This document shows positions 214-12,566 of a stretch of DNA of 12,566 bases, piece by piece (the first letter of the stretch is position 1; each line of letters starts with the position of its first letter). The position numbers and the translations under genes were made by a program. A model generated the notes under the pieces. The model saw only the letters and a list, made by a program, of their open reading frames with translations, did no database searches and had not been told where the DNA came from. The stretch spans positions 1-12,566 of the forward strand of contig CAZGJX010000110.1 of assembly GCA_964525635.1 (NCBI GenBank). The letters run 5' to 3'. The stretch comes from an uncultured archaeon. GTDB taxonomy: Archaea > Asgardarchaeota > Lokiarchaeia > Sigyniarchaeales > SOKP01.

Positions 214-2694
214 ATGTTTAAAAAAGAACTAAAAAAAAAAAAGGCCATCCTAATTATCACAGTTTTGATATTTAGTACATATTATGGAATATACTTACCA
301 AATTCAAGTCAAAAATCTAATATTACAATAGATATCAACGCATGGGCACCCCCAGCAGAAGTAAGTGATAATTATGGTGCTGCATTGCAGAAAGCAATAT
401 ATTTTTATATACTACAACGTTCTGGAAAATTACCTACGGATAATCCTTGTATTTGGAGAGGTGATTCTTGCTTAAATGATGGTTCTGATGTAGGATTAGA
501 TTTAACTGGAGGTTATTTTGATGCTGGAGACCATGTAAAATTTGGTTTACCTATAGCTTCAACTATAGTTACATTAGCATTAACTGTTTATGAATATGAA
601 TCAGTATTTCGGAGCTTAGGGCAATATGAGGAGGTGATTGATGCTATTAAGTGGGGAACAGATTATTTTATTAAATGCAATCCTGATTCAAATACATTTT
701 ACTTTCAAGTAGGAGATGGTGGTACTGATCATGCATGGTGGGGACCTGCTGAAGTTCTCGAAAATGTGATGAGTAGACCTTCTTATAAAGTAACAGCAAC
801 ACAAGGAGGATCTGCTGTCTGTGGAGCAACTGCTAGTGCTCTAACACTCACATCTATTATTTTAGAAGATTCTGATCCCTCATATGCTGCTTTATGTTTA
901 GATCATGCTATAGATTTATACAATCTTGCTCGAATAGCTCAATCAGATGATTATTACAATTCAATTGCAGGATCATTTTATGAATCTTGGAGTGGATTTT
1001 GGGATGAAATAGCAGCAACAGGAGCTATGTTATATTTAAAAACAGGTGATAATAAATATTTAACTCAAGCAGAAGAGGCTGCTCAAAACTGGAATACACA
1101 AGGTCAAGAACCATATTGGGAATACAAATGGGGTCACTCTTGGGATGATATGCACTATATTGCTCAGATGTTATTAGCAGATATAACAGGAAAACAAGAA
1201 TATATTGATTCGGTTGAAAGGAATTTAGATTGGTGGATGCCTGAGGGTGGAATAACCTATACTACAGGTGGACTTGCATGGTTAAATTCATGGGGTTCAC
1301 TTCGATATGCATCAAACACTGCATTTATGGCATTTATGTGGGTCGATAATCCTTTATGTACATCTTCAAAAGTTTCTATATATAGGAATTTTGCAGAAAA
1401 CCAAATTAATTATATTCTCGGAGAAAATCCAAATGGAAGAAGTTATATTTGTGGTTTTGGAACGAATCCTCCAGTAAATCCACACCATAGAACTGCTCAT
1501 GGCTCTTGGGCAAATAGTGTGAATACTCCTGAAGAGACCAGACATATTCTTTATGGTGCTTTAGTTGGAGGTCCTAATGCAAGTGATTATTATCAAGATG
1601 ATAGAACTGATTTTGAAATGAATGAAGTTGCTTGTGACTATAATTCAGGTCTCATTGGTGCCTTAGCTAAAATGGTAATCTTATATGGAGGTTCTCCACA
1701 TAGTGATTTTCCGAGGATATCATGGTTTAAGCCAATAGTAGAGAGAATACCTGAAATTTATCTTGAAGCCAGACTTAATTCTGAAGGAAATACATATACT
1801 GAAATAAGTGTAGATCTAATTAACCATGCTGCATGGCCAGCAAGAAATGGAGATAAATTATTATATCGTTATTTTTTTGATATATCAGAATGTATTGATG
1901 CAGGTTATTCGATAAATGATATTATTATAACTAAAGGGTATACAGAAGCACCAGTAACTGTTAGTGGCCCACATCAACTTATGGATAATGAATATTATAT
2001 TGATATAGATCATACAGGTTTTAATATTTTTCCAGGAGGACAATCAGAATGTGCAATAGAGAGTCAAATTAGAATAGGCTTACCTAATGATGCTCCTCCT
2101 TCAGCATGGGCTCCTACGAACGACTATTCATATCAAGGATTATCAAATATAAAAACAATTTCCAAATATATTTATGTTTATAACGATGGGATTCAAGTAT
2201 GGCCAAATAATATTAACCCGGGACCAATAATAAATCATCCAGATGATATTACATACTATTTAAGAACTACTGGTAATATGTTAACTTGGATAGCAACAGA
2301 TGACAATCCGACAACTTTTACAATTTACCGAGATAGTACATATCTCATTACAGCGTCATGGTGGTCTGGTGTAGAAATTAAATATCCTATTGATGGTTTG
2401 GATGTTGGGACTTATACTTATAGATGTATAGTTTCTAATGCAGATGGTTATAGTACTGCTGATTCTGTTATTGTATCTGTTATAGATCCACACCCCTTTG
2501 GAGATGTAAATCGTGATGGAACTGTTGATATTAAGGATGCTCTATGGATAGCTCGATATTATGTAGGTCTTAATCCTCAACCATTCTATGAAGAACAAGC
2601 TGATATAAATTCAGATGGTTTTATTGATATTAAAGATGCTTTATTGATAGCTCGATATTATGTTGGGTTAATACCATCGCTACCTCCTCCTTAA
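214..2694 (+). CDS. Modular endoglucanase/cellulase: signal or anchor, GH9, CBM3c, Ig-like, dockerin (826 aa)
   Basis: N-terminal basic then hydrophobic stretch (KKELKKKK-AILIITVLIFSTYYGIYL). GH9 motifs LTGGYFDAGDHVKFG (D103, D106), NPHHRTAHGSW and DDRTDFEMNEVACDYN (E471). CBM3c-like segment, and duplicated dockerin Ca-binding repeats at the C-terminus. Confidence 0.95.
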   Translation: MFKKELKKKKAILIITVLIFSTYYGIYLPNSSQKSNITIDINAWAPPAEVSDNYGAALQKAIYFYILQRSGKLPTDNPCIWRGDSCLNDGSDVGLDLTGGYFDAGDHVKFGLPIASTIVTLALTVYEYESVFRSLGQYEEVIDAIKWGTDYFIKCNPDSNTFYFQVGDGGTDHAWWGPAEVLENVMSRPSYKVTATQGGSAVCGATASALTLTSIILEDSDPSYAALCLDHAIDLYNLARIAQSDDYYNSIAGSFYESWSGFWDEIAATGAMLYLKTGDNKYLTQAEEAAQNWNTQGQEPYWEYKWGHSWDDMHYIAQMLLADITGKQEYIDSVERNLDWWMPEGGITYTTGGLAWLNSWGSLRYASNTAFMAFMWVDNPLCTSSKVSIYRNFAENQINYILGENPNGRSYICGFGTNPPVNPHHRTAHGSWANSVNTPEETRHILYGALVGGPNASDYYQDDRTDFEMNEVACDYNSGLIGALAKMVILYGGSPHSDFPRISWFKPIVERIPEIYLEARLNSEGNTYTEISVDLINHAAWPARNGDKLLYRYFFDISECIDAGYSINDIIITKGYTEAPVTVSGPHQLMDNEYYIDIDHTGFNIFPGGQSECAIESQIRIGLPNDAPPSAWAPTNDYSYQGLSNIKTISKYIYVYNDGIQVWPNNINPGPIINHPDDITYYLRTTGNMLTWIATDDNPTTFTIYRDSTYLITASWWSGVEIKYPIDGLDVGTYTYRCIVSNADGYSTADSVIVSVIDPHPFGDVNRDGTVDIKDALWIARYYVGLNPQPFYEEQADINSDGFIDIKDALLIARYYVGLIPSLPPP
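370..1680 (+). other. GH9 (alpha/alpha)6 catalytic domain, aa ~53-489
   Basis: Runs from NYGAALQKAIYFYILQRSGKLP through WRGDS, DAGDHVKF, WGSLRY, HHR and GALVGGP to NEVACDYN. All are hallmark GH9 motifs; the catalytic Asp pair and Glu are intact. Confidence 0.95.
1753..2205 (+). other. Family 3c carbohydrate-binding module fused to GH9, aa ~514-664
   Basis: EIYLEA...INHAAWPAR...YRYFFDISE...IFPGGQS...QIRI...NDYSYQGL...YIYVYNDGIQVW matches the pattern of CBM3c modules in GH9-CBM3c enzymes (T. fusca Cel9A / clostridial Cel9G type). Confidence 0.85.
2224..2481 (+). other. Ig-like beta-sandwich spacer domain, same family as the scaffoldin spacers
   Basis: PIINHPDDITY...TGNMLTWIATDDNPTTFTIY...W.SG...IDGLDVGTYTYRC.V...G....DSV.VSV aligns by eye with the seven spacer repeats in genes 2, 3 and 5. 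Confidence 0.8.
2497..2691 (+). other. Dockerin domain with two F-hand repeats
   Basis: GDVNRDGTVDIKDALWIARYYVG ... ADINSDGFIDIKDALLIARYYVG. Two DxNxDGxxDxxD Ca-binding loops, each followed by a helix, at the extreme C-terminus. Confidence 0.93.
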
Positions 2695-2724
2695 TATTTT
2701 CTATTAAGAGAAATAAATTACTAA

Positions 2725-2737
2725 TTTTCTTTTTTTT
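2725..2737 (+). terminator. Probable archaeal oligo-T terminator after GH9
   Basis: TTTTCTTTTTTTT about 30 bp after the stop codon, with no GC-rich hairpin. Confidence 0.45.
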
Positions 2738-2831
2738 CAATATTTTAAATTTAAATTACTATTTTCAATTTAATTTATACTATTTTGGAATAAATATAAC
2801 CTAATAATGGTTTATGTTGATGTAGATTTTT

Positions 2832-2865
2832 AAAATTTCACTTTTTGTCCATATACCTTTATAAA
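2832..2865 (+). promoter_or_regulatory. 20-bp motif (2832-2851) plus TATA box TTTATAAA (2858-2865) upstream of scaffoldin A
   Basis: Exact motif copy, 6-bp gap, archaeal consensus TATA box. Confidence 0.75.
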
Positions 2866-2948
2866 AAATATTCTCTTCGCATTTATTAAATAATTATACA
2901 AAAAAAAAATAGAATAAAAATACAAAAAAATTAGAGGAATTTTTAAAA

Positions 2949-5246
2949 ATGAAACATAGAAAAATTACAACTATTCTTATATTAAGCACAGTATTTATGG
3001 GATTCTTCTTAACAATGAATATTAATTTTTCAATGCCACAGACTTCTATGTCTAAAACACTTAATCTATCTGGTCAAGGTGGAGATGTTTGGTTTAGCTC
3101 AGTATCAACCCAAACCGTTGGTAACACTTTTGAGACTGAGATTTATGTCAATACAAGTAGTCAGATTTTAGGAGCTTATGGAATTGAAATTGTTTATAAT
3201 GAAGATGTTGTTCAAATCGCAAGTGATAACGATGTAGAAGCTGGTGATGAAGGATTTGTTTCTGCCGTTAATATTGATAATGATAATGGAGTGGTTACAA
3301 TTGCTGGATTTGATGCTATGGGTCAAGGACCAAGCTCTCAACTCCACTTATTAACCATTAATTGGACCGCAGTTGGCGCAGGTAGCAGTTCATTAGATTT
3401 ATCCATTATCGATTTAGCAGATAACCTTTTAGATCCAATAGGTACTCCTAACGATATTGATGGTAGTGTTGTTGTAGAAATAGGTGCACAAGCTCCAGTT
3501 CTTAATTCTCCACTATATATTTACTATCAAGAAGGTACTACAGGACATTCAATTACATGGATAGCGAAAGATGACAATCCTACAACCTATACTATAACTC
3601 AAAATGGTACTCAAGTAGATTCTGGTTCATGGAGTTCTGGTGTTGGAATCACGGTGAGTGTTGATGATTTATCAGAAGGTTCTTATACTTATATGTGTAC
3701 CATTAATGATGGAGATGGATTATCTGATTCAAACAACGTTACTGTAAATGTTGTTCCTGAAGCTGTTGGAAATGTATGGTTTAGCTCAGTATCAACCCAA
3801 ACCGTTGGTGACTCTTTTGAGACTGAGATCTATGTAAATACAGGTAATCAAAGATTAGCTACTTATGGATTTATTATTACTTATAATATGGATGTTATTC
3901 AAATAGCAAGTGTTGATGATATAGAGGCTGGTAGTGAAGGTTTTGTTTCTACAGTCCATCTTCAAAATGATAATGGATATACTAATATAACTGGATTCGA
4001 AGCAACAGCTACAGGCCCAAGCTCTCAACTCCACTTATTAACCATTACCTGGACCGCAATTGGCACAGGTCGTACTCCAATAAAATTACACAAAATAGTT
4101 TTATTAGATCCAGATTCCATCGAAATAGGTACTCCTAACGATATTAGGGGTAGTGTAATTGTAGAAGCACCTTTACAAGCTCCAGTTCTTAATTCTGCAT
4201 TAGATGTTTACTATCAAGAAGGTACTACAGGACATTCAATTACATGGATAGCGAAAGATGACAATCCTACAACCTATACTATAACTCAAAATGGTACTCA
4301 AGTAGATTCTGGTTCATGGAGTTCTGGTGTTGGAATCACGGTGAGTGTTGATGATTTATCAGAAGGTTCTTATACTTATATGTGTACCATTAATGATGGA
4401 GATGGATTATCTGATTCAAACAACGTTACTGTATATGTCGGGCTTGATACTGGTGGAGATGTATGGTTCAGTTCAGTATCACCCCAAACTGTTGGTGACA
4501 CTTTTGAGACTGAAATCTATGTAAATACAGGTAGTCAAAAATTAGCTGCTTATGGATTTAATATTACCTACAATGAAGATGTTATTCAAATAACAAGTGA
4601 TGATGATATAGAGGCGGGTGCTGATGGATTTATTTCTGTTGTCAATATAGATAATGATAATGGATTGGTTAGGATAGCTGGATTTGAAGCAACGGGTACA
4701 GGCCCAAGCTCTCAACTCCACTTATTAACCATTACCTGGACCGCAGTTGGTATAGGTAAAAGTTCATTAGATTTATCCATTGGAGAATTAGTAGATACAG
4801 ATGTATTCACAATAGTTACTCCTAACGATATTGATGGTAATGTAGAAGTTGAAGAAGCACCTACACAACCTCCAGTTCTTAATTCTCCATTAGATGTTTC
4901 CTATCAAGAAGGTCAAACTGGAAATTCCATTACTTGGACTGCTATAGATGATAATCCAACAACCTATATTATAACTCAAAATGGTATGATAGTTGCAAAT
5001 GGTTCTTGGAGTTCTGATAATCCAATCACAATAAATGTTGATGGTCTATCAGAAGGTTCTTATATCTATACTTGTACTGTCTATGATGGAGATGAATTAA
5101 CTGATTCTGATTCTGTTAATGTTTTAGTATATCCAGTAAAAGGAGGCGGAGACGGAGAAATTCCTGGATATAATTTATTTATATTTCTAGGAAGTTTATG
5201 GATTATGGTCCTTGTTGTAATATATCTAAGGAAAAGAAGACAATAA
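2949..5246 (+). CDS. Scaffoldin-like surface protein A: signal, (cohesin-Ig)x3, IPGY/TM/basic anchor (765 aa)
   Basis: Signal MKHRK-ITTILILSTVFMGFFL. Three ~133-aa beta-rich repeats starting G(D/N)VWFS at 3081-3479, 3768-4166 and 4455-4853, each with a cohesin-like pattern (VGDTFETEIYV..., AYGF.I.YN.DV.QI, LLTI.W.A.G.G.S.L.L). Ig-like repeats at 3492-3752, 4179-4439 and 4869-5129. C-terminus GGGDGEIPGYNLFIFLGSLWIMVLVVIYLRKRRQ. GAGGA at 2934-2938. Confidence 0.85.
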   Translation: MKHRKITTILILSTVFMGFFLTMNINFSMPQTSMSKTLNLSGQGGDVWFSSVSTQTVGNTFETEIYVNTSSQILGAYGIEIVYNEDVVQIASDNDVEAGDEGFVSAVNIDNDNGVVTIAGFDAMGQGPSSQLHLLTINWTAVGAGSSSLDLSIIDLADNLLDPIGTPNDIDGSVVVEIGAQAPVLNSPLYIYYQEGTTGHSITWIAKDDNPTTYTITQNGTQVDSGSWSSGVGITVSVDDLSEGSYTYMCTINDGDGLSDSNNVTVNVVPEAVGNVWFSSVSTQTVGDSFETEIYVNTGNQRLATYGFIITYNMDVIQIASVDDIEAGSEGFVSTVHLQNDNGYTNITGFEATATGPSSQLHLLTITWTAIGTGRTPIKLHKIVLLDPDSIEIGTPNDIRGSVIVEAPLQAPVLNSALDVYYQEGTTGHSITWIAKDDNPTTYTITQNGTQVDSGSWSSGVGITVSVDDLSEGSYTYMCTINDGDGLSDSNNVTVYVGLDTGGDVWFSSVSPQTVGDTFETEIYVNTGSQKLAAYGFNITYNEDVIQITSDDDIEAGADGFISVVNIDNDNGLVRIAGFEATGTGPSSQLHLLTITWTAVGIGKSSLDLSIGELVDTDVFTIVTPNDIDGNVEVEEAPTQPPVLNSPLDVSYQEGQTGNSITWTAIDDNPTTYIITQNGMIVANGSWSSDNPITINVDGLSEGSYIYTCTVYDGDELTDSDSVNVLVYPVKGGGDGEIPGYNLFIFLGSLWIMVLVVIYLRKRRQ
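3520..4433 (+). repeat. 227-bp identical direct repeat within gene 2 (3520-3746 = 4207-4433), encoding Ig-like modules 1 and 2
   Basis: Compared base by base by eye with no mismatch seen; offset 687 bp. Confidence 0.9.
5160..5246 (+). other. C-terminal sorting/anchor signal (IPGY motif, TM helix, basic tail; Loki-CTERM-like). Copies at 7152-7238 and 12293-12376.
   Basis: Tripartite layout typical of archaeal PGF-CTERM-like sorting signals, preceded by a Gly/Pro linker and conserved in all three paralogs. Confidence 0.8.
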
Positions 5247-5251
5247 TAATC

Positions 5252-5264
5252 TTTTTTTTTTTTT
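5252..5264 (+). terminator. Probable oligo-T terminator after scaffoldin A
   Basis: T13 run immediately after TAATAA. Confidence 0.55.
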
Positions 5265-5359
5265 CAATATTTAAAATTTTAATTCTTTTTTCACATTTAA
5301 TTTGTAGTAATTTAGAGTACTGTAGAAACAATAATGATCTAATATTGGTATAGATTTTC

Positions 5360-5379
5360 AAAATTTCAATTTTTATCCA
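5360..5379 (+). promoter_or_regulatory. Degenerate extra copy of the 20-bp motif (AAAATTTCAATTTTTATCCA, 18/20)
   Basis: Two mismatches to the consensus; 125 bp upstream of the exact copy at 5485. Confidence 0.5.
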
Positions 5380-5484
5380 ACTCCTTTTTTATAATAAGTC
5401 TACAAATAATATCTAAAGCGTCGTTTAATATAACCTAATCCAAAATCTAATGATTTCCCATTATTAGTTCTTTTTTTTTCGCTC

Positions 5485-5518
5485 AAAATTTCACTTTTTG
5501 TCCATATGCCTTTATAAA
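5485..5518 (+). promoter_or_regulatory. 20-bp motif (5485-5504) plus TATA box TTTATAAA (5511-5518) upstream of scaffoldin B
   Basis: Exact motif copy, 6-bp gap, consensus TATA box. Confidence 0.75.
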
Positions 5519-5600
5519 AAATATTCTCTTCGCATTTATTAAATAATTATAAAAAAAAAAATAGAATAAAAATACAAAAAAATTAGAGGAATGTTTAAAA

Positions 5601-7238
5601 ATGAAACATCGAAAAATTACAACTATTCTAATATTAAGCACGGTATTTATTGGATTCTTCTTAACAATGAATATTAATTTTTCAACACCACAGGCTTCTA
5701 TTTCTAAAACACTTAATCTATCTGGTCAAGGTGGAGATGTATGGTTCAGCTCAGTATCAACCCAATCCGTTGGTGACACTTTTGAGACTGAGATCTATGT
5801 CAATACAAGTAGTCAGATTTTAGGAGCTTATGGATTTGAAATTGTTTATAATGAAGATGTTGTTCAAATCGCAAGTGATAACGATGTAGAAGCTGGTGAT
5901 GAAGGATTTGTTTCTGCCGTTAATATTGATAATGATAATGGAGTGGTTACAATTGCTGGATTTGATGCTATGGGTCAAGGACCAAGCTCTCAACTCCACT
6001 TATTAACCATTAATTGGACCGCAGTTGGCGCAGGTAGCAGTTCATTAGATTTATCCATTATCGATTTAGCAGATAACCTTTTAGACCCAATAGGTACTCC
6101 TAATGCTATTGATGGTAGTATAGAGGTTGTAGAAGGTTCTGGAGGAGCTCCAGTTCTTAGTTTTCCAGTAGCTTTTTACTATCGAGAAGGTACTACAGGA
6201 CATTCAATTACTTGGATAGCAACAGATGATAATCCTACAACCTATAATATTACTCGAATAAAAATGCCAGATTACCAAAATGTAACTCAAATAGCCTCTG
6301 GTTCTTATAGTTCTGGAGATTCAATAACAATTACTGTTGATGGGTTATCAGTAGGTACTTATCACTATACCTGTACCGTTTATGATGGAGATGGATTATC
6401 TAAATCAACCATGACTATGGTAAAAGTCATTCCTACTACTCTTGGAAATGTATGGTTCAGCCCAGTATCAACCCAAACCGTAGGTAACACTTTTGAGACT
6501 GAGATCTATGTTGGTACAGGTAATCAGAATATAGCCGCTTATGGACTTAATATTACTTACAATGAAGATGTTATTCAAATAGCAAGTGATAATGATATAG
6601 AGGCTGGTGCTGAAGGATTTGTTTCTGCAGTGAATATTGATAATGCTAATGGATGGGTTATGATAGCTGGATTCGAAGCAAAGGGTACAGGTCCAAGTTC
6701 TCAACTGCACTTATTAAGCATTACCTGGACCACAGTTGGCGCAGGTACCAGTTCATTAGATTTAACCATTGAACATTTAGTAAATAATTATACAACGCCA
6801 ATAGAACATCCTAACGCTATTGATGGTAGTGTAGTTGTAGAAAGAGGTCCTGAAATAACTCCAGTTCTTAATTCTCCTACTGATGTTTCCTATCAAGAAG
6901 GTGAAACCGGAAATTCTATTACCTGGATACCTACAGATGACAATCCTACAATTTATACTATAACTCAAAATGGTACTCAAATAGCTTCTGGTTCATGGAG
7001 TTCTGGTAATCCAATCACAATAAATGTTGATGGATTATCTCCTGACCTATATATATATAAAATTACCGTATATGATGCAGATGAATTAACTGATACTGAT
7101 TCTGCTTATGTTTTAGTATATAAAGTACCTGAACCACCCGGAGGGGGAGAAATTCCTGGATATGATTTATATATATTTCTACTAAGTCTCTGGGTTACAG
7201 TCCTTGCTATAATATATCTAAGGAAAAGAAGCCAATAA
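5601..7238 (+). CDS. Scaffoldin-like surface protein B: signal, (cohesin-Ig)x2, IPGY/TM/basic anchor (545 aa)
   Basis: Paralog of gene 2. Cohesin-like modules at 5733-6128 and 6444-6842; Ig-like at 6147-6428 and 6858-7118; anchor at 7152-7238 (IPGYDLYIFLLSLWVTVLAIIYLRKRSQ). GAGGA at 5586-5590. Confidence 0.85.
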   Translation: MKHRKITTILILSTVFIGFFLTMNINFSTPQASISKTLNLSGQGGDVWFSSVSTQSVGDTFETEIYVNTSSQILGAYGFEIVYNEDVVQIASDNDVEAGDEGFVSAVNIDNDNGVVTIAGFDAMGQGPSSQLHLLTINWTAVGAGSSSLDLSIIDLADNLLDPIGTPNAIDGSIEVVEGSGGAPVLSFPVAFYYREGTTGHSITWIATDDNPTTYNITRIKMPDYQNVTQIASGSYSSGDSITITVDGLSVGTYHYTCTVYDGDGLSKSTMTMVKVIPTTLGNVWFSPVSTQTVGNTFETEIYVGTGNQNIAAYGLNITYNEDVIQIASDNDIEAGAEGFVSAVNIDNANGWVMIAGFEAKGTGPSSQLHLLSITWTTVGAGTSSLDLTIEHLVNNYTTPIEHPNAIDGSVVVERGPEITPVLNSPTDVSYQEGETGNSITWIPTDDNPTIYTITQNGTQIASGSWSSGNPITINVDGLSPDLYIYKITVYDADELTDTDSAYVLVYKVPEPPGGGEIPGYDLYIFLLSLWVTVLAIIYLRKRSQ

Positions 7239-7244
7239 TAACAA

Positions 7245-7255
7245 TTTATTTTTTT
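7245..7255 (+). terminator. Probable oligo-T terminator after scaffoldin B
   Basis: TTTATTTTTTT after TAATAA, at the position homologous to the T13 run after gene 2. Confidence 0.45.
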
Positions 7256-7340
7256 AATATTAAATTTTTTATAATTTTTTCTTTAATTTAATCTGAAATA
7301 GTTTAGAATATAAATAATCTATTATTGGTATAAAATTGCA

Positions 7341-7360
7341 AAAATTTCACTTTTTGTCCA
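7341..7360 (+). promoter_or_regulatory. 20-bp motif upstream of the beta-helix gene
   Basis: Exact copy, ending 97 bp before ATG 7457 (97-98 bp for genes 2 and 3). The TATA box is less canonical here (TTATAT at 7370). Confidence 0.65.
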
Positions 7361-7456
7361 AATTATTTCTTATATCATTATTTACTTGTGTAACTCTATG
7401 ATAATATTACCAAAAAATTTCTACCAAAAATGTGCTGAAAATAAAGATTAAATAAA

Positions 7457-10400
7457 ATGAAAAAAAGAAATGGAGTATATATATATAAGATGAGAACCCT
7501 AAAATTGGATTCAGGAAATAGAATGAACAAAAGTCCATTTATCTTAGTTTTAATACTCATTTTAAGTATAAATATTATCCTTTTTCTAAATTCAGGATAT
7601 TCTATATTAGAAAATGATTCTAGGAGAAATTCAAGTAATAATTATAATGGATTATTAGAAAATTCAGATTACTGGGATCTTTCAAATATCTTTATTAACG
7701 ATAGTGCAACTGGTTTAGGGGCTCATAATTGGACATGGGCTGTAAACCAAGACTGGTGTAATGGTTCAGGTGCATGGGATGATCCATATGTAATTGAAAA
7801 TATCACCATAAATGGATTGGGGAATTTAGTTCCAATCCATATAACCGATTCTGATAAATATTTTATTATCAGAAATTGTACTCTTTATAATTCACCATTT
7901 TTTTCAGAGCGTGATCGATATGTAGGTGGAATTCTTTTGGAAAATGTAAGTAAAGGAATAATAGAAAATAATAACTGCTTTGAAAATAGTAATGAAGGAA
8001 TTATTTTAAAATATAGTAGAAATTGTACAGTAAAACAAAATATAGTTAATCTAAATAACAATGGTATTACACTTTTTTATAGTAATAGTTGCACAATTAA
8101 AGAAAATACTGTTGAATTCAATATTAATAATGGAATAGAATTATATTATAGTAATAATAGTATAATTGAAGAAAATACTATTGAATCCAATTGGTATAGT
8201 CAAATTGCATTATCTTGGAGTAATAATATTGATGTGATTAAGAATAAGATCAATAATAATGGGGAAATTGGGATGGGCATCATAGGTAATACTCAGGATT
8301 CTTATATATTTAAAAATAACATAAGTAAGGGGTATTATGGTATTTCAGTTGGTGGTTATAATAATCTCATTAAAAATAACTGTATCTATAATTGCACCTT
8401 GAATGGAATAACTATAAGAGACTATGAAATAATACCTACAATAACTATAGAATCTATGAATAACACTATAATTGATAATAATTGTATTAATATAACAATT
8501 GATGGAATTTCAATCATGGATATGGCTCATAATACTTTTGTAAGAAATAATACTATCATTAATTCTAATTCCAATGGAATAATCGATAGAGGTGATAATT
8601 CCACTTTATATAATAATAAAGTACTTTTTTCTAAATATGGCATTTTTATAGAGAGTTATGCTGATAATGGTAATTATTCATATAATCTCATAAAAAGATG
8701 TGAAATTGGAGCCTATTTTTCTGGAAATGGGGAGAGTCATATAATTAAAAATAATGAATTAAAAATGTGTGGAATCTTTTTGAATCAAGAAGATTCTTTA
8801 TGGGACCTCACATCATATGAAATTGATACTTCAAATAAAGTAAATAACAGACCCATTTATTATTTTGCCAATTCTAGAAATTTAAATACTGTAAATTTTA
8901 CAAATTATGGGCCTCCAGGACAAATTATACTTATTAACTGTGAAGATTCAATAATTTCTAATTTTAAAATAATTAATTCGTCTTATAGTATAGTAATCTT
9001 ATATTCAAATAATATAACTCTCAGTAATAATAATGCTATCAATAACACACTTAGTAGTTTCTTTTTATATTTTGCTATTAATTGTAATATCATTAATAAT
9101 AATATTTCTTCAAATTATGGCAATGGATTAATTGTAGATAATTGTTTTAATCTTTCATTCGAATATAATTTATTTGAAAATAATGATATTAGTGGTATTT
9201 ATTTAACAAGAAGTACACAAATGAAAATTGAAAATAATACCTTTTATAAAAATAAAATTCATGGTATTGATTTTGATGGATTATGTACTGATAATGAAAT
9301 TATTAATAATACAATTACAGGTTATTATCAAATTGGAATAAATATCGTAAATTCAGGGAATATTAATATTTTAAATAATAAAATAAGTGATACTACTTTT
9401 ATTGGGCTTAATTTAGAATCTAGTGAAGATATTTTTATAAAAGATAATAGAATTAACAAATGTAATATTGGGATTAATCTTAATCTTATCAATAACTTAA
9501 AAATAGAAAATAATATAATCTCAGATAACTCATATGATGGAATTATAATTGTAAATTCAAAAGAAGTTGAGATTATAAACAATACTATTAAAGATAATCG
9601 CTATAATGGATTATATTTAAGTAATACAAATACTACTTTTCAATTATATAATATCATCATATATAATAACATATTCGAGAATAATCTAAATTCTATATAC
9701 CTTGGACCAAACACATTTAATATTACAATTGATTCTAATTTTATCAGTTTTAGTGTTTATGGTATTGTTATGGATAATTGTTTTAATTCAACTTTTAAGA
9801 GGAATAATTTCACTAATAATTATAAAGGTATTATAATAACAGAAGATTCGGGAGGTAATTTAATTTACCTTAATGAATTTTATAAAAATATTATACATGC
9901 GGAGGATGATGGAAGTAATAATAATTGGGATAATGGAACTATAGGTAATTATTGGGACGATTATAAAGGTAATGATCTAAATGGTGATGGTATTGGTGAA
10001 TTATATTATTCCATTTCTGGAAATGCTAATTCAGTAGATCGCTTTCCAATTTATAAACCTGATCATGAAAAACCTGATGATGAAAATCCCTTCTATGCTA
10101 TGATTACTGCTTTAATTAACAATCTTTTATCACCTATTAGTATATTAAGTGCTTCTATTATTATTACTTGTTCTATATTGGTTTTTTTACTTACTAGGAA
10201 AGAATATTTTCCTGGAAATGTCTTAGGAAACCCTGAAGGTGATTTTATTTTTAAGAATAAAAATCATATATTAAATAACTTCATTAATTCAGATGAATTA
10301 TTAGAGTTTAATCCTATAATTCAAGATTATCTTGTTGCTTCTTTAAAGCCATTAGATCTAAAAAAAATTGACAAATTAGATTTACCCCTTGATGAAAAAA

Positions 10401-10492
10401 ATAAATTTATAGCAGAATTCATTAATCTTAATTCAAGAGAAAGAAAAGAAATTATTAATGAAATGTTAAAAAGTCAAAAAGAAAATTTATAA
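7457..10492 (+). CDS. Right-handed parallel beta-helix (NosD/CASH-like) membrane protein with C-terminal TM and ~99-aa cytoplasmic tail (1011 aa; alternative start at 7523)
   Basis: Many G-I-x-L-x-x-S-x-N-x-x-I-x-x-N-x-I-x-x-N repeats. N-cap GSGAWDDPYVIENITI; C-cap NWDNGTIGNYWDDY.G.D.NGDGIG...Y.I.G....DRFP. N-terminal hydrophobic segment FILVLILILSINIILFL and a TM at 10136-10192 followed by RK. Confidence 0.85.
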   Translation: MKKRNGVYIYKMRTLKLDSGNRMNKSPFILVLILILSINIILFLNSGYSILENDSRRNSSNNYNGLLENSDYWDLSNIFINDSATGLGAHNWTWAVNQDWCNGSGAWDDPYVIENITINGLGNLVPIHITDSDKYFIIRNCTLYNSPFFSERDRYVGGILLENVSKGIIENNNCFENSNEGIILKYSRNCTVKQNIVNLNNNGITLFYSNSCTIKENTVEFNINNGIELYYSNNSIIEENTIESNWYSQIALSWSNNIDVIKNKINNNGEIGMGIIGNTQDSYIFKNNISKGYYGISVGGYNNLIKNNCIYNCTLNGITIRDYEIIPTITIESMNNTIIDNNCINITIDGISIMDMAHNTFVRNNTIINSNSNGIIDRGDNSTLYNNKVLFSKYGIFIESYADNGNYSYNLIKRCEIGAYFSGNGESHIIKNNELKMCGIFLNQEDSLWDLTSYEIDTSNKVNNRPIYYFANSRNLNTVNFTNYGPPGQIILINCEDSIISNFKIINSSYSIVILYSNNITLSNNNAINNTLSSFFLYFAINCNIINNNISSNYGNGLIVDNCFNLSFEYNLFENNDISGIYLTRSTQMKIENNTFYKNKIHGIDFDGLCTDNEIINNTITGYYQIGINIVNSGNINILNNKISDTTFIGLNLESSEDIFIKDNRINKCNIGINLNLINNLKIENNIISDNSYDGIIIVNSKEVEIINNTIKDNRYNGLYLSNTNTTFQLYNIIIYNNIFENNLNSIYLGPNTFNITIDSNFISFSVYGIVMDNCFNSTFKRNNFTNNYKGIIITEDSGGNLIYLNEFYKNIIHAEDDGSNNNWDNGTIGNYWDDYKGNDLNGDGIGELYYSISGNANSVDRFPIYKPDHEKPDDENPFYAMITALINNLLSPISILSASIIITCSILVFLLTRKEYFPGNVLGNPEGDFIFKNKNHILNNFINSDELLEFNPIIQDYLVASLKPLDLKKIDKLDLPLDEKNKFIAEFINLNSRERKEIINEMLKSQKENL

Positions 10493-10499
10493 TTTTTTT
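10493..10499 (+). terminator. Possible oligo-T terminator after the beta-helix gene
   Basis: T7 directly after the stop codon; weak evidence in such AT-rich DNA. Confidence 0.35.
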
Positions 10500-10650
10500 A
10501 AGAAATCCTATATATGAAAATAAATAATCTATTATAATTTTATTATATTTACAAAAATGTCTTATATATTATAATTAACTAGAGAGTTTTCTTATGTAAC
10601 TTAATCCAAAACCTAATGATTTCTCATTATTAATCCTTTTTTTTTCTGTT

Positions 10651-10684
10651 AAAATTTCACTTTTTGTCCATATGTATTTATAAA
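10651..10684 (+). promoter_or_regulatory. 20-bp motif (10651-10670) plus TATA box TTTATAAA (10677-10684) upstream of scaffoldin C
   Basis: Exact motif copy, 6-bp gap, consensus TATA box. Confidence 0.75.
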
Positions 10685-10744
10685 AAAATTCCTCTTTGAT
10701 TTTATTAAATAAATATATAAAAAAAAATAGAGGAATATTTAAAA

Positions 10745-12376
10745 CTGAAACATCGAAAAATTACAACTGTTCTAACGTTAAATACGGTATTCATAGGTTT
10801 CTTCTTAATGATGAATATTAATTTATCAACAACAGAGTCTTCTATTTCTAAAACGCTTAATCTATCTGCAAGTGGAGATGTATGGTTCAGCTCAATTCCA
10901 ACCCAAACTGTTGGTGACACTTTTGAGACTGAGATCTATGTTGATACTAATAGTCAGAGTTTAGCCACTTATGGATTAAGGATTGTTTATAATGAAAGTG
11001 TTATTCAAATAGCAAGTGTTAATGATGTAATTGCTGGTGCTGAAGGATTTGTTTCTACTGTCAATGTTGATAATGCTAATGGATTCGTTACTATAATTGG
11101 AATCGATGAAATGGGTGTAGACCCAAGCTCTCAACTCCATTTATTAACCATTAACTGGTCTGCGGTTGACGCAGGTACTAGTTCATTAGATTTAACCATT
11201 GACACTTTATCAGATATAGATTTCTTCGATATAGGTACTCCTAACGCTATTGATAGTAGTGTAGAGGTTAAAGAACCTCCTCAAGCTCCAGTTCTTAGTT
11301 TTCCAGTAGCTTTTTACTATCGAGAAGGTACTACAGGACATTCAATTACTTGGATAGCAACAGATGATAATCCTACAACCTATAATATTACTCGAATAAA
11401 AATGCCAGATTACCAAAATGTAACTCAAATAGCCTCTGGTTCTTATAGTTCTGGAGATTCAATAACAATTACTGTTGATGGGTTATCAGTAGGTACTTAT
11501 CACTATACCTGTACCGTTTATGATGGAGATGGATTATCTAAATTAACCATGACTATGGTAAAAGTCGTTCCTAAACGGGGTGGAAATGTATGGTTCAGCT
11601 CAGTATCAACCCAAACCGTTGGTGACATTTTTGAGACTGAGATCTATGTCAATACAAGTAATCAGAAGTTGGCTGGTTATGGATTTGATATTAGATGGAA
11701 TCAAAATATCCTTAATGTTCAAGGTGGATATGATGGGATCACTGCAGGTGCCGATGGATTCCTACCATACGCTATTGTTGACAATAATGCCGGTACTATG
11801 ATGCTTACTGGATTTGATCCCAATGGAGTAGGTCCTAATAATCAACTTCATTTATTAACTATTACCTGGATCGCAATTGGCATAGGTAACAGTCCATTAA
11901 ATTTATTCATTGACGATTTACTAGATACAGATTTAAACACATTAGGTATTCCTCAAGATTTTGATGCTAGTGTAGAGGTTGAAGATATACCTACACAAGC
12001 TCCCGTTCTTAATTCTCCTGCTAATGTTTCCTATCAAGAAGGTGAAACTGGAAATTCTATTACCTGGATAGCAACAGATTATAATCCTACAACCTATACT
12101 ATAACTCAAAATGATACTCAAGAAGCTTCTGGTTCATGGAGTTCTGATAATCCAATCACAATAAATGTTGATGGATTATCTTTTGGTTTATATATTTATA
12201 TAATTACCGTAAATGATGGAAGTGGAAACAATGCAACTGATTCTGTTTATGTTTTAGTATATAAAGTACCTGAACCACCCGGAGGCGGAGAGATTCCTGG
12301 ATATGATTTATTTATCTTTCTAGGAAGTTTATGGATTACGGTCCTTGCTATGATATATCTAAGGAGAAGAAGATAA
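10745..12376 (+). CDS. Scaffoldin-like surface protein C: signal, (cohesin-Ig)x2, IPGY/TM/basic anchor. The homologous start codon is CTG at 10745; the first ATG is at 10808.
   Basis: The in-frame upstream extension reads (L)KHRKITTVLTLNTVFIGFFLMMNIN, matching MKHRKITTILILSTVF(M/I)GFFLTMNIN of genes 2 and 3. Cohesin-like modules at 10874-11269 and 11582-11983; Ig-like at 11285-11566 and 11999-12259; anchor at 12293-12376. Confidence 0.8.
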   Translation: MKHRKITTVLTLNTVFIGFFLMMNINLSTTESSISKTLNLSASGDVWFSSIPTQTVGDTFETEIYVDTNSQSLATYGLRIVYNESVIQIASVNDVIAGAEGFVSTVNVDNANGFVTIIGIDEMGVDPSSQLHLLTINWSAVDAGTSSLDLTIDTLSDIDFFDIGTPNAIDSSVEVKEPPQAPVLSFPVAFYYREGTTGHSITWIATDDNPTTYNITRIKMPDYQNVTQIASGSYSSGDSITITVDGLSVGTYHYTCTVYDGDGLSKLTMTMVKVVPKRGGNVWFSSVSTQTVGDIFETEIYVNTSNQKLAGYGFDIRWNQNILNVQGGYDGITAGADGFLPYAIVDNNAGTMMLTGFDPNGVGPNNQLHLLTITWIAIGIGNSPLNLFIDDLLDTDLNTLGIPQDFDASVEVEDIPTQAPVLNSPANVSYQEGETGNSITWIATDYNPTTYTITQNDTQEASGSWSSDNPITINVDGLSFGLYIYIITVNDGSGNNATDSVYVLVYKVPEPPGGGEIPGYDLFIFLGSLWITVLAMIYLRRRR

Positions 12377-12397: not shown

Positions 12398-12566
12398 AAT
12401 TTTAGAATTTTTAACTATTTATTCTTCGGTGAAACTCCAACCTAATTCTTTATTAACAAAAAACATCATTTTAAAAATAGCCTAAGAAATAAGGGGTGGA
12501 ATTTAATGAAAAAATAGAAAAAAAACTCCTTGCGAACTAAAGTTCGCTTCTAATCACAAAACTTTT

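Follow-up and report, generated by a model that had tools for sequence, protein, structure and literature searches.

Does any archaeon build a cellulosome? The question is raised by the window analysed here, the 12,566 nt at positions 1-12,566 of contig CAZGJX010000110.1, in which an earlier note had seen a candidate Asgard cellulosome cluster with no known characterised example. In a survey of 305,693 RefSeq prokaryotic assemblies, cellulosome gene sets were found in 37 bacterial species only (PMC11557425). The papers searched, with subscription journals mostly outside the coverage, yielded no description of an archaeal cellulosome, nor of a dockerin, cellulosome or GH9 from Asgard archaea or Lokiarchaeia. 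Archaeal proteins with multiple cohesins have already been described in ANME (PMC9012536); their pairing with cellulases was not found in the papers searched. Our analysis supports the candidate cluster: the locus was confirmed and the system is larger than the window.

Organization of the locus

All five open reading frames were confirmed in place, each on the + strand. A cellulase gene (214-2694) is followed by those for scaffoldin A (2949-5246; 765 aa), scaffoldin B (5601-7238; 545 aa), a membrane-spanning beta-helix protein (7457-10492) and scaffoldin C (10745-12376). As had been proposed, the genes have one upstream motif in common, an exact 20-bp copy of which precedes each of them on the same strand. 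The copy before the cellulase gene, AAAATTTCACTTTTTGTCCA, lies at 115-134 with a TATA-like box about 7 bp downstream. The others lie at 2832-2851 before scaffoldin A, where TTTATAAA follows, at 5485-5504 before scaffoldin B, with a second copy carrying two mismatches at 5360, at 7341-7360 before the beta-helix gene and at 10651-10670 before scaffoldin C. The 4.45-Mb genome holds seven exact copies including these five, and three shuffles of the genome gave none within one mismatch. Two other species have the motif without a single base changed, and gene duplication partly accounts for the copies that precede the scaffoldins. It is found on only 2-3 of the genome's 25 dockerin genes, which weighs against a cellulosome; since most dockerin genes lack it, a genome-wide cellulosome regulon defined by this motif was ruled out.

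The cellulase consists of a signal peptide, a GH9 domain (373-1665), a CBM3c (about 1738-2202), an Ig-like spacer (2221-2496) and a C-terminal dockerin (2500-2691). The Pfam profiles for GH9, CBM3 and Dockerin_1 matched this ORF with E values of 3.6e-140, 2e-8 and 2e-10, respectively. Residues 53-665 align to Cel9G (1g87; E 3e-183), and an unbroken alignment of about 610 residues to 1g87 and 1js4 indicates that GH9 is joined directly to CBM3c as in the Cel9G/E4 type. The catalytic residues D103, D106 and E471 are all present. These results bear out the description of a secreted GH9-CBM3c cellulase with intact catalytic residues and a C-terminal dockerin. The Asp/Asp/Glu set is also retained in all three dockerin GH9s of the genome and in 24 of 24 dockerin-bearing GH9 sequences examined.

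The three scaffoldins together carry seven cohesin modules (3+2+2), at 3081-3482, 3768-4169 and 4455-4859 in scaffoldin A, 5733-6137 and 6444-6848 in scaffoldin B, and 10874-11275 and 11582-11989 in scaffoldin C. The modules are 134-136 aa long, are 48-94% identical to one another and alternate with Ig/PKD-like spacers. Scaffoldins A and B begin with signal peptides, and all three end in IPGY-TM tails (from 5160 in A, where a basic stretch follows, from 7152 in B and from 12293 in C). In scaffoldin C the first ATG (10808) falls downstream of the signal peptide; homology places the start codon at a CTG (10745), from which the protein would have 543 aa, and the letters at this start are identical in two other samples. 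The lost ATG weighs against a cellulosome, as does the small number of cohesins per scaffoldin, three here and four in relatives.

The profile check proposed earlier succeeded for GH9, CBM3 and Dockerin_1 and only partly for Cohesin. On the contig, scaffoldin C alone passed the Pfam cut-off (27.3 versus 24.1 bits), and in the genome scan two scaffoldin A modules passed as well. A single-sequence PDB search with scaffoldin A gave no cohesin match, and profile and fold comparison were needed. A PDB profile search with the cohesin matched 6kgc (E 1e-3). The AF2 model of a cohesin module (135 aa, pLDDT 97.8) is all-beta, and its best Foldseek matches were all cohesins (1aoh, E 1e-9, TM 0.81). Structure comparison by VIA against the CipA cohesins gave a Z of 16.4 with an rmsd of 1.8 over 128 residues. 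The model is closest to type I (TM 0.8, Z 15-16), with lower scores for types II and III, and shows a predicted nine-stranded jelly-roll lacking type II/III insertions. By modelled fold, the seven repeats are type-I-like cohesins with the jelly-roll that the earlier note had wanted checked. A complex prediction for the GH9 dockerin and the third scaffoldin A cohesin (score 0.17, mark 0.32) speaks neither for nor against their pairing. For a naturally occurring cohesin-dockerin tandem, AF2 folds each of the two modules (pLDDT 95) but leaves their mutual orientation uncertain (pTM 0.72), and a fold search with this model returned cohesins only.

Host assignment

The contig comes from a Promethearchaeota (Lokiarchaeia) archaeon of salt-marsh sediment. 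Its genome encodes an actin-family gene (E 9e-133), genomes of the same genus are named Promethearchaeota, and 14 proteins other than the scaffoldins pass the Loki-CTERM cut-off. A 16S rRNA gene was not found in the assembly. The IPGY-TM-basic tails had been taken as an archaeal sorting signal; they match Loki-CTERM (NF033507) over its full length (E 0.01-0.04), but at 14.3-16 bits they score under the cut-off of 19.9. The supposed NosD-type protein, also cited as a sign of an archaeal host, gives no such evidence: it reaches 130 bits against a TIGR04247 cut-off of 300 and is a generic beta-helix.

We considered whether this contig entered the bin by bacterial contamination or is a chimera. 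It carries no core gene, bacteria have close relatives of its GH9 and cohesins, and it is the most tetranucleotide-divergent among 187 contigs longer than 5 kb. However, the GC3 of its genes (0.14-0.19, against 0.17 +/- 0.04 for the genome) and their codon use match the genome, so the tetranucleotide skew stems from amino-acid composition. A paralogous scaffoldin lies on a 61-kb contig that also encodes an actin-family gene, orthologous scaffoldins share a 43-kb Promethearchaeota contig with genes for RpoB and a Ras GTPase, and an orthologue adjoins a GTPase in an independent assembly. Contigs from other samples bridge three gene junctions of the locus, and the contig GH9 nests inside a Lokiarchaeia clade (support 0.97). 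Contamination is therefore highly improbable and already largely refuted, and the contig is assigned to Asgard archaea. Two of the three conditions under which the earlier note would have given up its proposal, a bacterial or chimeric contig and repeats without the cohesin fold, were thus checked, and neither refuted it.

The system in the genome and in relatives

The genome encodes 25 dockerin proteins above the Pfam cut-off, all of one uniform two-helix type, and six anchored proteins that together offer 12 cohesin sites. Four anchored proteins carry 3, 3, 2 and 2 cohesins, and dockerins are fused to GH9 (three), GH5 (four, and one frameshifted) and GH16 (one); both features are genomic criteria for cellulosomes in PMC11557425. 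The dockerin cellulases have hydrophobic N-termini that would serve as export signals, and the GH5s carry the NEP acid/base motif. Genome totals are eight GH9, eleven GH5, three GH94, two GH3 and several CBM3s. A profile search found neither CBM3 nor any other CBM in the scaffoldins of the genome, whose module maps leave no space for one. The lack of a CBM3-bearing scaffoldin weighs against a cellulosome, as do two further observations: only about eight of the 25 dockerin proteins are glycoside hydrolases, the other 17 or so being C25 and S8 peptidases, a solute-binding protein, an I42 inhibitor, Ig arrays and unknowns, and GH48, the exoglucanase expected of cellulosomes that degrade crystalline cellulose, was not found in the 245-contig draft genome.

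Among 400 genomes of the phylum scanned, the expanded system occurs in four of four genomes of the genus and in one other. Enlarged sets of dockerins (11-25 copies) and of cohesins coincide in these same five genomes, which represent two lineages and not five independent cases; two further genomes have a cohesin match. GH48 is present in three of the five (G002, G003 and G035), each time with a cohesin-dockerin tail, and was not found in G000, G001 or any of the 36 other relatives searched. In relatives, GH48, GH9 and GH5 enzymes end in cohesin-dockerin tandems, and one GH5 is fused directly to four cohesins and an anchor; about 50 proteins join a cohesin of the same family directly to the same dockerin. 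In G192, of another genus, an anchored protein with four cohesins was found but no dockerin was detected, which weighs against a cellulosome; at the corresponding locus of another MAG, however, the counterpart of this protein has a dockerin. A cohesin-dockerin contig in G084 has a different anchor and looks unlike its host, and was left out of the counts. Fourteen-cohesin proteins were observed in Halovivax.

Proposed mechanism and candidate sensors

Module content and modelled folds make it likely that this Lokiarchaeia genus assembles several enzymes into a cellulosome-like complex anchored to the cell. If they behave as characterised cohesin-dockerin pairs do, the dockerins would bind the cohesins Ca-dependently and, because the two dockerin helices are near-identical, probably in either orientation. 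As the scaffoldins lack a CBM, attachment of the cell to cellulose would fall to the CBM3/CBM4 modules of the enzymes themselves. Like Cel9G/E4, the GH9-CBM3c would be a processive endoglucanase. Once imported, cellodextrins would be cleaved within the cell by GH94 phosphorylases and by GH3 glucosidases, and cohesin-dockerin tandem enzymes would let the complex grow as branched chains. More speculatively, a winged-helix regulator, together with partner membrane sensors, may act at the 20-bp site next to the TATA box to co-regulate the beta-helix gene, GH9 and the scaffoldins.

The beta-helix protein is predicted to comprise an extracellular right-handed beta-helix, a TM near residue 885 and a cytoplasmic domain of about 95 aa (10208-10489), and looks like a candidate membrane sensor. 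An ESM Atlas search with the cytoplasmic domain gave no usable match. Its family is Lokiarchaeia-wide, is usually encoded beside a winged-helix (TrmB-like) regulator and includes catalytically dead GH9(-CBM3) membrane proteins adjoining such regulators, which suggests cellulose sensing. By analogy, the arrangement resembles RsgI/sigma-I biomass sensing of Acetivibrio (PMC11557425) in having a membrane protein with a carbohydrate-binding or dead-GH domain outside, a domain inside and an adjoining regulator. This putative sensing system uses parts unrelated to RsgI/sigma-I, the tail domain and the TrmB-like protein. We tentatively raise a stronger possibility, that the genus truly degrades cellulose anaerobically and possesses the first cellulosome of an archaeon, in which bacterial cohesin, dockerin and cellulase modules sit on archaeal membrane anchors, enzymes with cohesin and dockerin form branched chains, and dead GH9-CBM3 and beta-helix sensors coupled to winged-helix regulators are a convergent counterpart of clostridial RsgI.

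Alternatively, the complex may assemble as a general detritus-scavenging surface hub for proteins, soluble glucans and oligomer capture, with cellulases minor and crystalline cellulose not degraded. The non-GH majority among the dockerin cargo fits this explanation, as does the lack of GH48 in G000 and G001. ANME dockerins occur on ABC solute-binding proteins (PMC9012536), a fusion found once in our genome, and about eight dockerin-GHs make it a "low DocGH" genome in terms of PMC11557425. However, clostridial cellulosomes also contain many non-GH dockerin proteins, and GH48 is present in sister species. Together with the genome's GH9, GH5, CBM3 and GH94 complement and the dead GH9-CBM3 proteins beside regulators, this makes a scavenging role unlikely. 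The cohesin-Ig arrays could also be adhesins or envelope proteins that bind none or only a subset of these dockerins, leaving the cellulase a neighbour that works free. The cohesins are just 13-22% identical to those of solved complexes, and the G192 and Halovivax proteins are compatible with such a function. It is nonetheless improbable given that cohesins and dockerins expand together and are directly fused in the proteins described above, that GH-dockerin genes adjoin scaffoldins and have the same promoter motif on two contigs, and that the G192 counterpart has a dockerin; archaeal cohesin-dockerin pairs have moreover been shown to bind, as cited in PMC9012536.

Comparison with known systems and origin

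The cellulosome-like complex that we favour shares with the bacterial type I systems of Acetivibrio thermocellus (CipA) and Ruminiclostridium cellulolyticum (CipC and Cel9G) a type-I-like cohesin fold (TM about 0.8), a two-EF-hand dockerin, a Cel9G-type GH9-CBM3c-dockerin, GH5 and, in relatives, GH48, as well as peptidase and inhibitor cargo and GH94 in the genome. Unlike them, it has an archaeal host and short scaffoldins (2-4 cohesins) with strict cohesin/Ig alternation, a direct IPGY-TM anchor and no CBM3, X2, type II dockerin or SLH adaptor, and many of its enzymes end in cohesin-dockerin tandems. Ruminococcus-type systems have CBM-less scaffoldins with a direct surface anchor. The archaeal system resembles these in that enzymes bind the substrate, cargo is mixed and a C-terminal sorting signal ties the scaffoldin to the cell, but its cohesins are nearer type I than type III by fold scores, its dockerins form a single uniform group, and no sortase motif or adaptor hierarchy was seen. 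Among archaea, the Archaeoglobus fulgidus cohesin (2xdh) has the same fold (Z 15.9), and ANME have proteins with up to five cohesins and share the dockerin-bearing ABC solute-binding protein. These archaeal proteins are treated as non-cellulosomal (PMC9012536) and are described without cellulases, whereas the dockerins here are on intact GH9, GH5, GH16 and GH48.

Asgard scaffoldins with dockerin-bearing GH9, GH5 and GH48 would bring cellulosomes into the third domain, in a lineage related to the ancestor of eukaryotes. If so, some Lokiarchaeia would not only ferment peptides but act as primary degraders of plant material in anoxic marsh sediments, and cellulose would be a concrete enrichment substrate for an uncultured Asgard genus. 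The divergent cohesin-dockerin family, mostly missed by standard HMMs, is possibly orthogonal for designer cellulosomes.

The closest bacterial multi-cohesin proteins are the Spirochaetales MAG scaffoldins MBN2533187.1, MBN2737270.1 and MBN2738599.1, of which no description was found in the papers searched. Their cohesins and dockerins are of the same sequence family as those here (aligned cohesin modules are 34-47% identical), but the proteins are bacterial, carry CBM3, an internal dockerin and 6-10 cohesins, and have neither the IPGY anchor nor the Asgard Ig spacer. Spirochaetales-like bacteria are the probable source of the modules, which would since have diversified within the Lokiarchaeia lineage; we infer this direction from a midpoint-rooted FastTree phylogeny of 135-residue cohesin domains, most rows being of unknown origin, with no true outgroup or AU test. 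The same proteins point to undescribed cellulosomes in Spirochaetales.

The GH9 cellulase of the window

The window is a complete contig, C110, with a length of 12,566 bp. It belongs to the draft genome G000 (4.45 Mb), rated as 100% complete and 3% contaminated, and its forward strand carries five long ORFs. By profile search, the first (214-2694, + strand) encodes a secreted GH9 cellulase with a signal peptide, GH9, CBM3c, an Ig-like spacer and a dockerin. The alignment of this protein with Cel9G and E4 was unbroken, and D103, D106 and E471 are retained. The earlier note had described a GH9-CBM3c enzyme with intact catalytic residues and a C-terminal dockerin, and these results bear that description out. 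In a GH9 tree, the enzyme belongs to an 18-sequence clade (support 0.97) whose identified members are all Lokiarchaeia; since this clade includes catalytically dead paralogues, GH9 has diversified within the lineage. The nearest named bacterial relatives are from the Sedimentisphaerales. At the far end of the window (12500-12566), there is a repeat of about 65 bp, and at least 12 other contigs of the genome have it at their ends; it is probably the end of a mobile element or another dispersed repeat where the assembly broke.

Cohesin modules and their dockerin

Three ORFs, scaffoldins A, B and C, are built of a 134-136-aa module that alternates with a 90-aa Ig/PKD-like module 3, 2 and 2 times, and at their C-terminal ends IPGY is followed by a transmembrane helix and then by basic residues. 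The repeats were scarcely detected by Pfam Cohesin and were not recognised as cohesins when the PDB was searched with a single sequence. With a 113-sequence alignment as input, AF2 modelled the module at pLDDT 97.8. The top 50 Foldseek matches to this model were all cohesin-containing entries, CipA being first (E 1e-9, TM 0.81). An independent structural search returned 20 cohesin entries at the top (Z 16.4, rmsd 1.8 over 128 residues) and unrelated folds at Z <=11.6. Fold scores were higher for type I cohesins and for the one from Archaeoglobus than for types II and III. By their predicted structure, the repeats, which had earlier been taken as cohesin-like 133-aa units, are cohesins. The dockerin consists of two Ca-loop-helix repeats, near-identical both within a dockerin and among 35 Asgard copies; by analogy with clostridial dockerins, this suggests two binding orientations. 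Scaffoldin C has CTG at 10745-10747, the site of its paralogues' ATG, and a less hydrophobic signal peptide; the same letters are present in two other samples, and the CTG may be a non-canonical start or a sign of early decay.

Host of the gene cluster

G000 encodes actin (E 9e-133) and 14 Loki-CTERM proteins, and genomes of the same genus carry the name Promethearchaeota. An actin-family gene shares its contig of 61 kb with a three-cohesin paralogue and a GH5-dockerin gene. Orthologous four-cohesin scaffoldins are encoded on a 43-kb contig that also carries RpoB and a Ras-family GTPase. In an independent assembly, an orthologous four-cohesin scaffoldin adjoins a small GTPase. The window DNA is also contained in salt-marsh metagenomes, whose contigs cover each of the 30 bins and run across three of the junctions between genes. 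The window contig lacks core genes and is the strongest tetranucleotide outlier of its bin, as contamination would be; however, it is in line with the genome in GC3 and codon use, and the linkage of scaffoldin relatives to the actin-family gene, RpoB and GTPases on other contigs makes contamination highly improbable. The host is an Asgard archaeon, as had been claimed.

Proposed function of the system in G000

The genome encodes 25 dockerin proteins, including three GH9, four GH5, a GH16 and a frameshifted GH5-cohesin-dockerin protein, and its 12 cohesin sites are on six IPGY-anchored proteins. Also encoded in the genome are eight GH9, eleven GH5, three GH94 and two GH3. We consider it probable that the scaffoldins are exported and then kept in the membrane by their C-terminal tails, where dockerin enzymes would be loaded onto the cohesins. 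The enzymes' own CBMs would fix the cell to plant fibre, and the cellodextrins set free would be imported and phosphorolysed. The analysis shows the identity of the modules, the catalytic residues, the host and the joint occurrence of cohesins and dockerins; that the proteins bind one another, assemble on the surface, are active and are regulated is what we infer.

It is rather unlikely that the scaffoldins form a general scavenging hub, a reading to be set beside the non-GH cargo, which consists of C25 and S8 peptidases, an oligopeptide-type solute-binding protein, an I42 inhibitor, Ig arrays and unknown proteins. Slightly less likely still is that they are adhesins that do not dock. A counter-case to the joint occurrence of cohesins and dockerins is G192, a genome of another genus, which encodes an anchored four-cohesin protein (L068:12388-14832) and in which no dockerin was detected. 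This protein might capture the dockerin enzymes of other organisms, or its cargo might have been lost; its counterpart P0010 has a dockerin at the position of the third cohesin.

A GH5-Fn3-Ig-cohesin-dockerin gene of G000 (L007:4045-7301) is frameshifted in mid-cohesin. Two giant C25 peptidases carry dockerins (L011:71-5158 and L011:7179-13475), and the larger, with three tandem cohesins, would be an unanchored catalytic adaptor. An ORF of at least 6,440 aa (L016:657-19976) combines an N-terminal dockerin with LamG and CBM96 domains.

Upstream motif and candidate sensors

A 20-bp motif precedes all five window genes and ends about 7 bp ahead of a TATA-like box, in agreement with the single upstream motif reported for the cluster. 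The genome has seven exact copies and shuffled sequences have none; the motif is exactly kept in two other species. Its role as a general dockerin regulon was rejected. Behind one exact copy (C31:35750 of G000) there is just a short ORF, with about 64 codons.

The fourth window ORF encodes a beta-helix membrane protein with a transmembrane helix and, on the cytoplasmic side, an unnamed domain of 95 aa (10208-10489). The earlier note had called it NosD-type, an identity that we rejected. Fourteen proteins of G000 share the 95-aa domain, and 11 of these are encoded no more than about 600 bp away from a gene for a TrmB-like winged-helix protein; the partner is a 225-aa TrmB-like double winged-helix protein (L005:145-819). 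On contig C10, in the related genome G002 and in another assembly, the genes for regulator, beta-helix protein and scaffoldin lie next to one another. The tail domain is present in 20 of 41 related genomes of the order, with 18 copies in G019. Catalytic residues are lost in all four GH9 proteins with this tail and kept in all 24 dockerin-bearing GH9s. Two dead GH9-CBM3 genes of G000, on C75 and C33 (L024:2364-5507 and L077:16194-20000, both on the minus strand), encode a transmembrane helix and the cytoplasmic tail and are located 22-36 bp from a winged-helix gene; a third dead GH9, on C222, is cut off by the contig end. The dead GH9-CBM3 membrane proteins are the sister clade of the window GH9 and are candidate cellulose sensors. 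The 95-aa domain and the winged-helix protein may form an undescribed pair for transmembrane signalling in Lokiarchaeia, which would have been co-opted for polysaccharides.

Relation to known systems

A RefSeq survey found cellulosome producers in bacteria only (PMC11557425); by its criteria G000 is a producer, as a case low in dockerin-bearing glycoside hydrolases. The system is not of the CipA type because its scaffoldins are without CBM3. Archaeal dockerins are known to bind cohesins, and in ANME archaea there are proteins of up to five cohesins, whose cargo is for transport and the S-layer (PMC9012536). For haloarchaea, GH26 mannanases that bear dockerin domains are mentioned, without cohesins (PMC10963439). 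In literature that covered subscription journals thinly, we found no description of scaffoldins together with dockerin cellulases in any archaeon. The system is of a known kind, occurs here in a domain of life that is new for it and has an architecture of its own.

Distribution and origin

Cohesins of the window family were found in 7 of 400 genomes of the phylum. Expanded cohesin sets with 11-25 dockerins occur in five of the 400, namely all four of the genus and one of another family. GH48 is present in three of these five and was not found in the draft genome of G000. The GH48, GH9 and GH5 enzymes of relatives often end in Ig-cohesin-dockerin, and one scaffoldin begins with GH5. About 50 proteins of the wider family have a cohesin-dockerin tandem with linkers of <=5 residues. 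In our judgement these are too short to let a tandem bind itself through the canonical face; each tandem enzyme would therefore add one docking site per site occupied. In the relative G035, most cohesin matches are within enzyme-cohesin-dockerin tails (L056-L059, L064) and no multi-cohesin scaffoldin was seen in the fragmented draft, so that assembly is possibly by scaffoldin-free chains.

The best named non-Asgard cohesin matches were Spirochaetales MAG proteins with CBM3, dockerin and 6-10 cohesins. When the tree was rooted at its midpoint, most cohesins from Asgard archaea, Hodarchaeota among them, formed one clade (0.99) nested in diversity that holds Spirochaetales sequences. Since the distribution is patchy, the simplest reading is a putative transfer from bacteria. 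The parts may have several donors because the nearest named bacteria are Sedimentisphaerales for GH9 and Spirochaetales for the cohesins. The large scaffoldins of uncultured Spirochaetales (P0024, at L087:10001-15697, P0027 and P0031; 6-10 cohesins, with CBM3 and dockerin in P0024 and P0027) apparently represent an undescribed bacterial cellulosome family. In a haloarchaeal protein of 2,059 aa (P0035, Halovivax limisalsi), about 14 segments gave distant cohesin-like matches, and the anchor is of the PGF type.
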